51,795 nt of DNA from an uncultured archaeon (GTDB lineage: Archaea > Aenigmatarchaeota > Aenigmatarchaeia > CG10238-14 > SCSR01): assembly GCA_964366355.1 (NCBI GenBank), contig CAYITO010000002.1:1-51795 (forward strand), written 5' to 3'. Under the pieces are notes generated by a model. That model saw only the letters and a program-made list of their open reading frames with translations, was not told the origin of the DNA and did no database searches. The position numbers and the translations under genes were made by a program. Positions 43,906 to 50,711 of this stretch are shown piece after piece (position 1 is the first letter of the stretch; every line of letters begins with the position of its first letter).

Positions 43906-44115
43906 ATGAAAGAGTTTGTCTTGCTTTTTGACATACCTAGAGAAGAGCACAAAGTTGAAGTTAAAGCTTGGAGAGATTTGCACAGAATGGGTGCTAGGAT
44001 GATACAACATTCAGTTTGGAAGTCAGATAAACTTCAAAATTTGATAGATGTAGCGATATTCATTAAAAAATCCGGCGGTATGGCAAGAATCCTAGAAGAA
44101 AGGTTTGTATTTTGA
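43906..44115 (+). CDS. Small Cas2-like protein, solitary (no cas1 and no CRISPR array in the window)
   Basis: FVLLFDIPREEHKVEVKAWRDLHRMGARMIQHSVWKSD parallels the Cas2 N-terminus (hhhhYDI ... RR.KV.K.L...G.RvQ.SVFEC). 69 aa, shorter than typical Cas2. Family assignment is tentative. Confidence 0.4.
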   Translation: MKEFVLLFDIPREEHKVEVKAWRDLHRMGARMIQHSVWKSDKLQNLIDVAIFIKKSGGMARILEERFVF

Positions 44116-44213
44116 TGGGTCTGCCCGGATTCGAACCGGGGTTTACGCGATTTTGAAAGTTTCGTCAACGCGCCGTCCTTTGCGGATTTTTTAAACCGCT
44201 AGACTACAAACCC
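44116..44213 (-). tRNA. tRNA-Val (anticodon GAC) with a 12-nt intron at 37/38 and a possible second insertion in the D-loop
   Basis: Minus-strand sequence GGGTTTG TA GTCT [AGCGGTTTAAAAAATCCGCAAA] GGAC G GCGCG TTGACG[AAACTTTCAAAA]T CGCGT AAAC CCCGG TTCGAAT CCGGG CAGACCC A. The acceptor and T arms are perfect. U33 and purine-37 are present. Confidence 0.65.
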
Positions 44214-46148: not shown

Positions 46149-46245
46149 CGCCTAGGGCGAGATTTGAACTCGCAAGGTCTTTCGACCGCTGGTTACTCGC
46201 CAAAGGATAGCAAACCAGTGCCATACCAGGTTAGGCGACCTAGGC
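46149..46245 (-). tRNA. tRNA-Ser (anticodon GCU), class II with a long variable arm and a 13-nt intron at 37/38
   Basis: Minus strand: GCCTAGG TC GCC TAACCTGGTAT GGC A CTGGT TTGCTA[TCCTTTGGCGAGT]A ACCAG CGGTCGAAAGACCTT GCGAG TTCAAAT CTCGC CCTAGGC G. All stems are perfect and the total is 97 nt. Confidence 0.85.
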
Positions 46246-47839: not shown

Positions 47840-47907
47840 AACCATTATTATGCCAGTGCTTGTAAACTTTATTAATTTGTTTCAACAATTATTGATAGGA
47901 GGATGGT

Positions 47908-48207
47908 ATGACAATAGCAGTAAAAGATATTCAAGAGATGTTCAACAAGGATGTCTTCACAAGCAAAGGCGTATATTGCGGCAGGATAACTGACATGGAA
48001 CTTGATCTTTCAAGGTTCAAAGTTCGTTCGTTGGTCATCGAAGCTGCCAAAAATTCAAGTTTGGGTAAATTGGTCGGCGGCAAGAAAGGAATAATTGTTC
48101 CTTATCCTGTAGTCCAAGCGGTCGGAGATGTCGTGCTGGTAAACCACAAGATTCTATCCGGCATGTCCGAGGAACCAGGCACTGAAGCCCAGCCGGTTGA
48201 AGCTTGA
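47908..48207 (+). CDS. PRC-barrel domain protein
   Basis: 99 aa: VKDIQEMFNKDVFTSKGVYCGRITDMELDLSRFKVRSLVIE ... IIVPYPVVQAVGDVVLV. A Shine-Dalgarno-like GGAGGA lies 5 nt upstream of the start. Confidence 0.6.
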   Translation: MTIAVKDIQEMFNKDVFTSKGVYCGRITDMELDLSRFKVRSLVIEAAKNSSLGKLVGGKKGIIVPYPVVQAVGDVVLVNHKILSGMSEEPGTEAQPVEA

Positions 48208-48478
48208 TCTCATGGAAGAAGACAAAATCCCAGTGAAGACGAAAGAAGTTCCCTGGTCTAAGACTGGCGAGGCCTATATACTTACTGATACAGAGACCAA
48301 GAAGAATTATACTCTAGATCCTATTTCTTTTCTTGTGTGGGTCCAATGCGATGGCAAGACTCAAGTAGATAAGATAGTAGACATCTTTGCAGTTAATGGG
48401 AATAGGGACATAGTCAAGGCTGCCGTTTCTGGTGTGCTGGATAAGCTGGCTAATAGTGGGCTTATAAAATGGTTATAG
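48197..48478 (+). CDS. PqqD-like (RiPP-recognition-element fold) small protein
   Basis: NYTLDPISFLVWVQCDGKTQVDKIVDIFA ... DIVKAAVSGVLDKLANSGLI matches the PqqD family pattern. It overlaps the PRC-barrel gene by 11 nt. Confidence 0.55.
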   Translation: MKLDLMEEDKIPVKTKEVPWSKTGEAYILTDTETKKNYTLDPISFLVWVQCDGKTQVDKIVDIFAVNGNRDIVKAAVSGVLDKLANSGLIKWL

Positions 48479-48667
48479 CTTTCCTAGTCTAGAATTCTTT
48501 CGTATAATAAATAAATAAAAATCAAAGAAAATCAAATTTCATTCCTATATTCCCAAGCTTTCTTCTTCGTCTTCCCAATCCTCGAACGGATCGAATACAT
48601 CGTCTTTCATTGCCAACCCTCCTGAAGTTTAATTCCCCCACAAAAAAAGGAAAAGTGGGGAAGGATT

Positions 48668-49813
48668 TCATCGTATGATGTCAATCCCCAAAGTACTGCT
48701 AAGCTCTCTTACAACAGGCCTGTCGTAGCTTACTGGGCCTAGAATGTAAGGTGATTTTACTCCAGTAATTATCGCGATTACTTGGATCTTGCCCTTGAAT
48801 TCAGGCAAAATTCTTGCTCCCCAGAACACTGTTGCTGAGGGGTCCAAGTGCTGCGCTACTGTTTCACCGATGAGATTAACCTCTTCGAGCCTCATGTCTT
48901 CTCCTCCGGTGATGTGCACAAGTGCACCTGCTGAACCTGCGTAATCTACTTCCAACAACGGATTCATCAATGCTTTTGTGATTGAATCTCGTGCCCGGTC
49001 GCTGCTGTTGGATTCACCCACTCCTATTGCCGCCACCCCGCCTGCACTCATTACCGACTTTATGTCTGCGTAATCGAGGTTTACCAAGCTAGGCAGTGTT
49101 ATAGTTTCTGTGATTCCTTTTACCATGCTGGCAACGAGTTCGTCTGCTATTGCAAACGCCTGCTGGACTGATAGATTGCCTGCATATTTCAGCAGTTTGT
49201 CATTTTCAATGACTATTACTGTGTCTGTCACCTGTCTAAGGGCTGCCAAGCCGTCTTCGGCCTTGTTTATTCTTGCACCTTCGACCTTGAAAGGCATAGT
49301 TACTACTGCGATTACGATAGCTCCCGTTGACTTTGCCATCTCGCAAACCACCGGAATGCTACCTGTTCCTGTTCCTTTGCCCAAACCGGCAATGGCGAAC
49401 AGCAAATCTACACCATCGAGAACCTCTTTGATTTCATTTCTGTTCTCTTCGGCCGATTTCCTGCCTATTTCAGGATGCCCGCCGCAACCCAACCCGCGTG
49501 TCAATTCTCTACCGATGAGAATCTTCTTGTCAGCTTTACCCACGGCCAAGTGTTTCGCATCTGTATTCAAAGAAACAGTTACGGCACCTTCGACTCCCAT
49601 CTCGGTGAGTCTTGTTACAGTGTTCTGTCCTGCTCCTCCACAACCTACAACAGCGATTTGGGCCTTCTTTATTTGAAAGCCGAACTCTTGTTCTGCTAGT
49701 TTATAGTAATCAACGTTGGCAAATGTTGCACCTGAGGTTGATTCCAATTTGAACCTTGTTGTAGGAGATTCTTCGTTAGGCTTTCCTAGCGCGCTTCTTA
49801 CTATTGATTCCAT
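48668..49813 (-). CDS. ftsZ: Cell division GTPase FtsZ
   Basis: GCGGAGQN ... GLGKGTGTGS tubulin/FtsZ signature. The real start is likely the ATG at 49813, preceded by AGGAGG (49821-49826, minus strand), rather than the TTG at 49837. Confidence 0.9.
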   Translation of the reverse strand: MESIVRSALGKPNEESPTTRFKLESTSGATFANVDYYKLAEQEFGFQIKKAQIAVVGCGGAGQNTVTRLTEMGVEGAVTVSLNTDAKHLAVGKADKKILIGRELTRGLGCGGHPEIGRKSAEENRNEIKEVLDGVDLLFAIAGLGKGTGTGSIPVVCEMAKSTGAIVIAVVTMPFKVEGARINKAEDGLAALRQVTDTVIVIENDKLLKYAGNLSVQQAFAIADELVASMVKGITETITLPSLVNLDYADIKSVMSAGGVAAIGVGESNSSDRARDSITKALMNPLLEVDYAGSAGALVHITGGEDMRLEEVNLIGETVAQHLDPSATVFWGARILPEFKGKIQVIAIITGVKSPYILGPVSYDRPVVRELSSTLGIDIIR

Positions 49814-49939
49814 TTTTTCTCCTCCTATTCTCTTCAAAATATATTTTGTATCATCGAAAACCCCTTTATAAGGTTTCGATAAACTACTTTTACGAGGATT
49901 AGTCGATTATAAAAACTAGTGACTAAGACCATTCGTTAC

Positions 49940-50189: not shown

Positions 50190-50711
50190 TTAAAATTTTC
50201 TATATAAAAATTTTGTGCTTAACCCAAAAAACCCCTTACAGAACCCGCTCTTACAATATTTTCTTCCAGACTTGTAAAATTCCGTCACCCTAATCAACGA
50301 GTTTACTGATGTGACCATTGGTAAAGCCACTTCAAAGATAGGTGATATACCATCATTATAGAATTCCTTTGCGGCATCAAAGCTCCTTGGAATGGATTCC
50401 AAAGTTTCTATGAGAATCTTCGCCTCATTCTTCTCCACATCAGGATTAGGCACTCTGAGTGTTAGGAAGAAATCTTTACCAAGCACATTTCTTGAAAAGA
50501 AGGGCTCGTATCTGGTGAAAAGCTTCTTGACAACATAATTGTCCACTTCCTTGCCTTCGCAGTCCCATAATTGCTCCTGGCATTTCAAGTGTGAATAGGC
50601 ATAAAAGGCTTCCTTTATCTCATCCTCTCCTTCTAGTATAGAATTTGTAGCAAAGAATGGTGTACGCACATTATCGGGATGTTGTGTTGACATTGTTCTT
50701 GGTATCTGCAT
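50190..50711 (-). pseudogene. Archaeal-type phosphoenolpyruvate carboxylase, N-terminal remnant (about 150 of roughly 500 aa)
   Basis: IPRTMSTQHPDN ... EAFYAYSHLKCQEQLWDCEGKEVDNYVVKKLF ... LRVPNPDVEKNEAKILIETLESIPRSFD matches the archaeal PEPC N-terminus. Similarity is lost near the 3' end, and no continuation ORF exists before ftsZ. Confidence 0.55.

Follow-up and report, generated by a model that had tools for sequence, protein, structure and literature searches.

A conserved acidic micropeptide gene behind ftsZ and a CdpB1-type PRC-barrel/RRE-fold gene pair as a candidate division neighbourhood of Aenigmarchaeota

We analyzed a 51,795-nucleotide (nt) stretch of an uncultured archaeon (GenBank assembly GCA_964366355.1, contig CAYITO010000002.1, positions 1 to 51,795 of the forward strand; hereafter the window), in which the division gene ftsZ is followed by a 21-codon open reading frame (ORF) for an acidic micropeptide and faces, on the other strand, a PRC-barrel gene and a PqqD-like gene with the predicted fold of a RiPP recognition element (RRE; RiPP, a peptide synthesized by ribosomes and modified after translation). 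The window is an Aenigmarchaeota (DPANN) contig, and all homologues with a source name come from Candidatus Aenigmarchaeota or Aenigmatarchaeota. All three ORFs are real genes. On balance, we find it probable that together with ftsZ they make up a lineage-specific division neighbourhood of Aenigmarchaeota, and that the micropeptide acts in trans as a ligand of the division scaffold, cotranscribed with ftsZ, and not as a RiPP precursor. A preliminary description of the window had proposed a peptide-based regulatory or RiPP-like module at the division locus.

Results

The micropeptide gene

The micro-ORF runs from an ATG at 48610 to a stop at 48545 (48545..48610, −, stop included), beginning 57 nt past the ftsZ stop codon as the second cistron behind ftsZ. 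A Shine-Dalgarno-like GGAGGG, read from the sequence, lies 6 nt before the ATG (48617..48622, −). Translation gives a 21-amino-acid (aa) peptide, MKDDVFDPFEDWEDEEESLGI, with a net charge of −9.5 and a single Lys. The ORF is present where the preliminary description had placed it, downstream of ftsZ and convergent to the gene pair, with 66 nt separating it from the PqqD-like gene. Public gene calling on the identical contig left it out.

Related loci were collected in two independent ways: 35 loci from species-representative genomes, seeded with the PqqD-like protein, and 80 metagenome loci seeded with FtsZ (51–83% identical to the window FtsZ). In the FtsZ-seeded loci, the micropeptide was sought in six frames over 452 kb with a relaxed motif and an acidity filter; both samples together gave ~700 kb of six-frame translation searched for the peptide motif. 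The resulting set comprised 44 loci (the window and 43 others) with 38 distinct DNA versions and 37 distinct peptides, which we aligned. Conservation in relatives, suggested in the preliminary description as a check on the micro-ORF, was found: in the 43 other loci, it is kept in the same slot directly downstream of ftsZ and on the ftsZ strand, and it varies chiefly at codon position 3. The motif had no match elsewhere in the ~700 kb.

The variation is what a translated sequence would leave. Across the 38 DNA versions, the minority-base fraction reached 0.52 for third codon positions but only 0.20 for first and 0.13 for second positions. GAT encodes the invariant Asp in 22 versions and GAC in 16, the near-invariant Pro is written CCG (16), CCT (10), CCA (9), or CCC (2), and all three types of stop codon are in use. 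A purine-rich Shine-Dalgarno-like site (GGAGG, GAGGTG, GGGGCG, or GGTGA) stands 5–10 nt upstream in most versions, as judged by eye and uncounted. The flanking spacer is unalignable across lineages while the peptide motif persists. These patterns lead us to regard the micro-ORF, with high confidence, as coding and under purifying selection at the protein level. A read-through or frameshift extension of FtsZ was also considered and ruled out, since two stop codons lie between ftsZ and the micro-ORF in the window, the reading frame relative to ftsZ varies among loci (in the window it is the ftsZ frame), and the micro-ORF begins with a start codon of its own behind a Shine-Dalgarno-like site.

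The 37 peptides are 17–32 aa long and consist of 55% Asp/Glu, 1% Lys/Arg, and 4% Ser/Thr, with 0 Cys. They share an N-terminal motif, [DE][DE]D-x-[WYF]-D-P-[LF], followed by a poly-acidic middle (consensus M-x-E-D-x-W-D-P-L-x-D, then an acidic run), and 28 of them end in W, F, I, or L. One sub-group has Pro at the aromatic position (DIPDPL).

The PRC-barrel gene

The PRC-barrel ORF of the preliminary description (47908..48207, +; 99 aa) is present, with a Shine-Dalgarno-like GGAGG read directly from the sequence 5 nt before its ATG (47898..47902, +), and its match to PF05239 lies above the cut-off (33.7 bits against 21.2, E = 3.6e-8). The barrel covers approximately residues 7–80; the C-terminal tail, residues 84–99, is acidic and predicted to be disordered. 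A phmmer search of the PDB returned 8qzo and 8onw, the Archaeoglobus fulgidus CdpB1/CdpB2 complex (E = 5e-11 to 4e-10), as well as MTH1859 (1pm3), with the second PRC domain of 8qzo_A reaching only 4 bits. The AlphaFold2 (AF2) model, built from 28 homologues, is only moderately confident, with a predicted local distance difference test score (pLDDT) of 67. Its top Foldseek matches were 8onw_A/D/F (PRC1, 33–34% identity; 33–36% over the fold alignments to A. fulgidus PRC1), ranking above the PRC2 chains 8onw_C/E (14–15% identity) and photosynthetic H subunits. We equate A. fulgidus PRC1 with CdpB1 from the entry titles and the paper. Because the closest match in both sequence and fold is a PRC1 chain, we read the gene product as a CdpB1-type PRC barrel and a putative SepF binder.

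PRC barrels act in FtsZ-based division, and CdpB1 is the paralogue that binds SepF directly; CdpB1-class proteins of Haloferax and Archaeoglobus bind this FtsZ anchor and organize the ring. Published CdpB work thus bears out the link between PRC barrels and archaeal cell division drawn in the preliminary description. Like CdpB1, CdpB2, and CdpB3 (H. volcanii; A. fulgidus 8ONW, 8QZO), the window protein is a single-domain PRC barrel of ~100 aa from an archaeon dividing with FtsZ. Unlike theirs, its gene is translationally coupled to an RRE-fold gene and adjoins ftsZ; in 524 surveyed genomes, Zhao et al. saw a PRC gene near ftsZ and sepF in one genome only. No sepF gene was identified in the window.

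The PqqD-like gene

The second cistron of the PRC operon encodes an 88-aa PqqD-like protein with an RRE fold (48212..48478, +), which matches PF05402 at 33.1 bits (cut-off 23.4, E = 7e-8). The TTG-started ORF 48197–48478 exists as previously read. The TTG at 48197 is an unlikely start, and ATG 48212 is most likely the true one, because the identical protein is 88 aa long in the public gene call and homologues are mostly 85–88 aa, with N-termini aligned with MEEDKIP. Starting there, the gene follows the PRC stop after a 4-nt gap. The 11-nt overlap stated in the preliminary description therefore probably falls away, whereas the tight coupling it stood for holds: in 37 of 40 loci, the PRC and PqqD genes lie −11 to +13 nt apart, and 15 loci show a 4-nt ATGA/GTGA overlap.

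Structure prediction and fold search both give the RRE fold on which the preliminary description had staked its proposal, in agreement with the PF05402 match. The AF2 model (30-sequence alignment) has a pLDDT of 91.3 and a predicted template-modelling (TM) score of 0.81, and consists of strands at residues 15–18, 21–26, and 31–35, then helices at 37–44, 52–59, and 65–81, with short extra strands at 7–9 and 85–87. The top Foldseek matches in the PDB were TbiB1 with leader peptide (5v1u, 5v1v), a lasso B1 protein (6jx3), and PqqD (5sxy), at TM scores of 0.71–0.73; RRE domains of heterocyclases and sactipeptide synthases followed lower down. The link to RREs comes from the fold search only, a PDB sequence search with the PqqD-like profile having given no significant match. 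Identity as a true PqqD or a named RiPP chaperone was ruled out by NCBIfam equivalog scores far below cut-off (TIGR03859, PqqD, 13.3 against 46; TIGR04248, 24.6 against 100; TIGR04302, 19.7 against 100).

The protein has 270 close homologues at 54–95% identity, and a profile search of 1.84 billion cluster representatives returned only 4 below 1e-10, then generic PqqD-like noise. The PqqD-like proteins are a narrow, isolated, and highly conserved family, found only directly behind a PRC gene. Their most conserved parts are the β3–α1 and α3 segments. Discrete RREs of the PqqD and lasso type (PqqD; TbiB1, 5V1U/5V1V; 6JX3) bind a short W/Y/L-x-x-P/L/I peptide motif, which they recognize in the β3/α3 cleft (PMC12710340). 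In contrast to PqqD and lasso B1, the window gene has no PqqE, PqqB, PqqC, or lasso B2/C genes nearby, its protein scores only 13 bits on TIGR03859, its constant partner is a PRC barrel, and its family is an isolated cluster whose named members are Aenigmarchaeota. In the literature searched, no paper named both PqqD and a PRC barrel.

Co-occurrence across related loci

A PRC gene lies directly upstream of the PqqD-like gene in 35 of 35 PqqD-seeded loci. Nineteen of these show ftsZ convergent downstream, and in 19/19 the micropeptide gene sits in between; in another (L020), the micropeptide is seen though the contig ends before ftsZ. Twelve loci with enough flank have no ftsZ, and the micropeptide was found within 5 kb in none of the 12. 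The attachment to the division locus noted in the preliminary description is thus conserved synteny and no isolated case.

In the FtsZ-seeded sample, the micropeptide occurs in 24 of 80 loci, always directly downstream of ftsZ on the same strand and 8 to ~350 nt away, and was found nowhere else in the 452 kb searched in six frames. A neighbour-joining tree of FtsZ confines it to one clade, within which four nested loci lack the peptide (L044, L049, L051, L059). Among the 24 loci, 12 have a PRC gene within 4 kb and 6 a PqqD-like gene. The PRC genes within 4 kb of ftsZ occur in three arrangements: convergent with a PqqD-like gene, convergent without one, and upstream on the same strand. In L040, L046, L052, L058, and L073, the orthologous PRC gene is convergent to ftsZ and the micropeptide, and neither a PqqD gene nor space to fit one is present; the DxWDPL motif is degenerate in L052 and intact in the other four. 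The upstream arrangement is seen in L043 and L053, where the PRC gene lies 2–3.6 kb from ftsZ. CdpB1-type PRC genes near ftsZ without a PqqD-like gene occur in several lineages, some of them GC-richer. In L061 and L076, the peptide motif is intact with neither a PRC nor a PqqD gene within ~4 kb on either side.

Every PqqD-like gene found follows a PRC gene, while the converse is untrue. The pair also occurs apart from the peptide. In GCA_001784635.1, it lies beside aIF5A (L032), and ftsZ (L118), which encodes GGGTGTG in its signature loop, is followed by a 65-aa ORF and no micropeptide. On contig Ga0315280_10000036, ~13 kb separate the pair from ftsZ, and no micropeptide was found in the 16 kb surrounding the pair or in the 9 kb surrounding ftsZ. 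Dependence of the PqqD-like protein on the peptide is therefore excluded, and the PqqD-like protein cannot be the only source of constraint on the motif, which is intact in loci without a PqqD gene. The constant partner of the micropeptide is ftsZ, not the PqqD-like gene.

In a sister clade of Aenigmarchaeota, an unrelated ORF of ~65 aa fills the slot behind ftsZ (L060, L064, L065, L067, L068, L070, L071, L077, L118; for example L118:6263-6460,+), and more distant FtsZ loci have neither. Its consensus is M..EDVVFNLIK.EN..NGMVYEPRI.KMATLLNIHPD.YERIKERLIERGKI.K.G.KLFLP. It has no Pfam match and no detectable relation to the micropeptide or the PqqD-like family, and its product may be a small winged-helix protein. 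Descent of the micropeptide from this ORF by truncation was considered and dropped (hhalign probability 0.15%). In L044, one of the nested loci, the micropeptide slot holds a 140-aa ORF (L044:3636-4058, +) that opens with MDENIQRNPFEDSQTFE and runs on into a predicted transmembrane segment, possibly a descendant of the micropeptide gene by fusion or neofunctionalization.

FtsZ and the spacer behind its gene

The ftsZ gene (48668..49813, −; stop at 48668–48670) encodes 381 aa from ATG 49813, the likely start and that of the public call (TTG 49837 is also possible). The protein scores 393.5 bits against TIGR00065 (cut-off 295, E = 9e-118), has the Pfam Tubulin and FtsZ_C domains, and retains its own C-terminal tail, ...TLGIDIIR, with the GID motif described for archaeal FtsZ (PMC8178401). 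The SepF-binding FtsZ tail of M. smithii, NEDQLDDFIDGIF, is acidic and hydrophobic and binds through ion pairs plus a hydrophobic pocket (PMC8178401).

The FtsZ signature loop reads GKGTGTG instead of GGGTGTG, the Lys being K154 counted from the TTG start (window 49376-49378, −; motif GLGKGTGTG). Lys is an unusual residue for the phosphate-binding T4 loop. Almost every FtsZ of the micropeptide clade has GKGTGTG, and the sister clade and all sampled outgroups keep GGG, as does the FtsZ of L022, where the peptide is present. Of 18 FtsZ positions that separate the micropeptide clade from the sister clade, only K154 is derived in the micropeptide clade; K361 is ancestral. In a charge-based docking-site search, K154 was considered as a signal of FtsZ–peptide co-evolution and rejected: it represents one event on one branch, hence no evidence.

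We take the micropeptide gene, from its position, to be the second cistron of the ftsZ unit, its output possibly attenuated. The spacer between the two contains a hairpin (48635..48660, −) of CCCCAC, a U-rich loop, and GUGGGG, with the tract UUUUCCUUUUUUU; L003 and L004 carry compensatory changes in the stem. It may be a partial terminator or attenuator, although the evidence for a function is weak because its folding energy does not beat that of shuffled sequence (z = +0.62). Other lineages have a hairpin or U-tract, and L022 and L018 have no terminator-like element between ftsZ and the micropeptide. In the minimum-energy fold of 48611-48667 (−), CCUUCC right after the ftsZ stop pairs with the GGAGGG site of the micropeptide. 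Such pairing would couple micropeptide translation to ribosomes finishing ftsZ, which we treat as a lead only (z = +0.62 for the folding energy).

A conserved structured-RNA-like element was seen between ftsZ and the micro-ORF in 13 related loci (L008, L010, L012, L013, L020, L041, L043, L053, L056, L057, L075, L078, L116), with a variant in L006, L044, and L051; the window has no such element, only the short hairpin. A closing stem, CCACACUUC...GAAGAAAUGUGG, with compensatory changes in 4 of 10 pairs, encloses a nearly invariant CACACUCUGGAC. An Rfam search for this element matched only tRNAs. Its possible function is as a site of processing, stability, or protein binding through which the output of micropeptide is controlled.

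Other features of the window

The neighbouring genes encode GuaA, two methyltransferases, thymidylate kinase, MgtC, an Lhr-type helicase, a phosphoenolpyruvate (PEP) carboxylase fragment, and GatC. The archaeal-type PEP carboxylase ORF (50190-50711, −) matches just positions 1–147 of the 493-position Pfam profile, with ~350 nt of non-coding sequence between it and ftsZ; this reflects gene truncation, a pseudogene, or a join made in assembly. The same organism's contig in another assembly stops at approximately window position 49854. An identical PRC protein is also present on contig Hain_H51_01um (ENA sample ERZ1292643), apparently from Hainich groundwater.

Rfam identified two tRNA genes of 97–98 nt (44116-44213, −, and 46149-46245, −), probably with introns; ARAGORN reported none. 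Two intron-containing tRNAs fit an archaeal source. At 43906-44115 (+), a 69-aa ORF (MKEFVLLFDIPREEHKVEVKAWRDLHRMGARMIQHSVWKS...) has no Pfam match above noise; its N-terminal pattern presumably resembles that of Cas2-like small nucleases.

Discussion

How the neighbourhood may work

We propose that the micropeptide is made from the ftsZ message, so that its supply would track FtsZ synthesis, possibly damped in some lineages where the spacer has a hairpin or U-tract. A disordered, acidic chain that carries one conserved aromatic-Asp-Pro-Leu anchor and, in most members, a hydrophobic end has the make-up of a tail-type short linear motif. The micropeptide could thus be a free-standing "tail" that tunes ring assembly by docking in a groove, basic or hydrophobic, on one of the ring components: FtsZ itself, SepF, or the CdpB1-type barrel. 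The SepF-binding tail of archaeal FtsZ is of this kind, and since FtsZ keeps its GID tail, competition or modulation is a likelier role for the peptide than replacement. The RRE-fold protein may be a peptide-binding winged-helix domain recruited as an adaptor partnering the PRC barrel, a role suggested by the lack of RiPP enzymes nearby. The invariant coupling of the two genes suggests that the PRC and RRE-fold proteins form a complex. Where present, the RRE-fold protein could offer its β3/α3 cleft as an additional, accessory receptor, non-essential for the peptide; this is plausible because the W-x-x-L core fits the RRE recognition class and the cleft segments are the most conserved of the family.

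The micropeptide has partial parallels among known tails and division modulators. Like the archaeal FtsZ GID tail and the acidic tails of tubulin, it is short, disordered, and acidic, has hydrophobic anchors, and is tied to FtsZ, and in the window clade it ends ...SLGI where the window FtsZ ends ...TLGIDIIR. It comes, however, from a separate gene beside an FtsZ that keeps its own tail, and the resemblance has no support from homology or alignment: the LGI/LGF ending is found only in the window clade, L058, and L093, the peptides mostly ending in EFW, EEF, or DIF. In bacteria, FtsZ and the divisome are modulated by the small proteins MciZ, SulA, Kil, and SidA. As with these, direct action of a small gene product on the division ring is presumed, but there is no sequence similarity, the micropeptide is archaeal, extremely acidic, and only 17–32 aa long, and its gene is constitutively linked to ftsZ in an operon-like manner instead of being induced by stress, phage, or sporulation.

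A further parallel is haloarchaeal cdrS, which is reportedly co-transcribed with ftsZ2. As at the cdrS–ftsZ2 locus (PMC8406309), a small gene beside an archaeal ftsZ is tied to division control. CdrS differs in being a folded ribbon-helix-helix regulator of ~60 aa encoded upstream of ftsZ2, whereas the micropeptide is disordered, acidic, and encoded downstream of ftsZ. Nothing relevant to division micropeptides of DPANN archaea, or to small ORFs behind ftsZ, turned up in the literature searched.

Evidence against and alternative explanations

Several observations weigh against a division neighbourhood organized in this way. In nine of the 12 PqqD-seeded loci without ftsZ (L017, L024, L025, L026, L028, L029, L031, L032, L033), the pair is followed by aIF5A and mostly by a histone gene and TFB, so it may not be division-specific, which fits the remark of Zhao et al. 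that PRC genes frequently adjoin translation and RNA-processing genes. Micropeptide genes occur in loci that lack the PqqD-like gene, and vice versa. The U-tract after ftsZ could end many transcripts ahead of the micro-ORF, and the folding energy of the window hairpin is no better than that of shuffled sequence (z = +0.62). Finally, FtsZ has its own GID tail, leaving no missing tail for the peptide to supply.

It is possible, if unlikely, that the PqqD-like RRE is the dedicated receptor of the micropeptide, holding the W/Y/F-D-P-L/F core as a β-strand in its β3/α3 cleft and forming one module with the PRC protein. The high-confidence fold, the nearest structures (discrete RREs with leader peptides bound), and the conservation of β3–α1 and α3 all favour this, as does the adjacency of the two genes here and in all 19 other PqqD-seeded loci showing ftsZ. 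The pairing of peptide and PqqD-like protein put forward in the preliminary description survives to the extent that the peptide core fits the W/Y/L-x-x-P/L/I class (PMC12710340), and fails in that the partnership is not obligatory: the motif is intact in the four loci with a PRC gene and no PqqD gene and in the two with neither, while GCA_001784635.1 and Ga0315280_10000036 have the pair and no micropeptide near it or near ftsZ. Such a recognition motif is, moreover, short and degenerate, and the DIPDPL sub-group has Pro in place of the aromatic residue. The same separation of the two genes bears on a RiPP-like system, in which the RRE would present the micropeptide as a precursor to enzymes encoded elsewhere in the genome. 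An RRE-fold gene adjoining a small peptide gene, and a conserved leader-like N-terminal motif ahead of a more variable remainder, are what such a system would offer. Against it stands the composition of the peptides, rich in Asp/Glu and without Cys, which with only 4% Ser/Thr excludes the Cys/Ser/Thr-based RiPP classes; the RiPP-chaperone equivalogs likewise score far below their cut-offs. DPANN genomes are also strongly reduced. As the preliminary description had itself stated, the window has no peptide-modifying enzyme: no radical-SAM, YcaO, lanthipeptide, lasso B2/C, or ATP-grasp gene. None was recognized among the printed ORFs of related loci, inspected mostly by eye with few scanned against Pfam, where the neighbours are NUDIX, MazG-like, HDAC-like, AsnRS, aIF5A, histone, and TFB genes (Pfam confirmed only aIF5A, histone, and cupin). 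We therefore abandon the earlier RiPP-like reading as very improbable.

The adjacency itself might be only historical, with the micropeptide specific to ftsZ and the PRC–PqqD pair serving translation or RNA metabolism and merely syntenic in one clade. The nine loci beside aIF5A, histone, and mostly TFB genes, with ribosomal protein S2 and aIF2-alpha nearby, point this way; so do the survey of Zhao et al., with its translation and RNA-processing neighbours and a single genome near ftsZ and sepF, and the likelihood that small DPANN genomes can keep gene order without a functional link. We nevertheless rate this as improbable: what the PRC protein most resembles is CdpB1, whose role in division is proven, and PRC genes within 4 kb of ftsZ in three arrangements are more than frozen synteny would leave. 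Still more doubtful in our view is a bolder proposal, that the acidic "tail" function of a tubulin-family protein is supplied in trans by the ~20-residue peptide, encoded separately on one shared message, with the RRE domain, whose fold elsewhere belongs to natural-product biosynthesis, reading the peptide and bridging to CdpB1–SepF, and with the clade-specific Gly-to-Lys change (GKGTGTG) as part of the same innovation. That the micro-ORF is untranslated, being an RNA element (a terminator or the ftsZ 3′ untranslated region) or a read-through extension of FtsZ, is scarcely credible. The hairpins and U-tracts of the 3′ region, the shared frame with ftsZ in the window, and the structured-RNA-like element of related loci would suit it, but two stops intervene and the frame differs between loci, variation falls at third codon positions with Asp and Pro kept through synonymous codons, and the motif persists where the spacer can no longer be aligned.

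Conclusions

We infer from these comparisons a division module of the CdpB type. Two of its accessory parts were undescribed, and one of them would be a new micropeptide family. A CdpB1-type gene physically linked to ftsZ had appeared once in a published survey, and the module places an RRE-fold protein outside any RiPP context. For genome mining, it is a caution: a PqqD/RRE match beside a small ORF here marks no RiPP cluster. The micropeptide gene, probably part of the ftsZ transcription unit, is too small for most gene callers, and its product is short enough for synthesis, hence cheap to test directly on the FtsZ, SepF, PRC, and RRE proteins and on FtsZ polymerization. The known parts of archaeal division are few (FtsZ1/2, SepF, CdpA, CdpB1-3, and a few recent additions) and almost all haloarchaeal. 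To these, the locus adds, by comparative evidence, three candidate division parts from an uncultured DPANN phylum.

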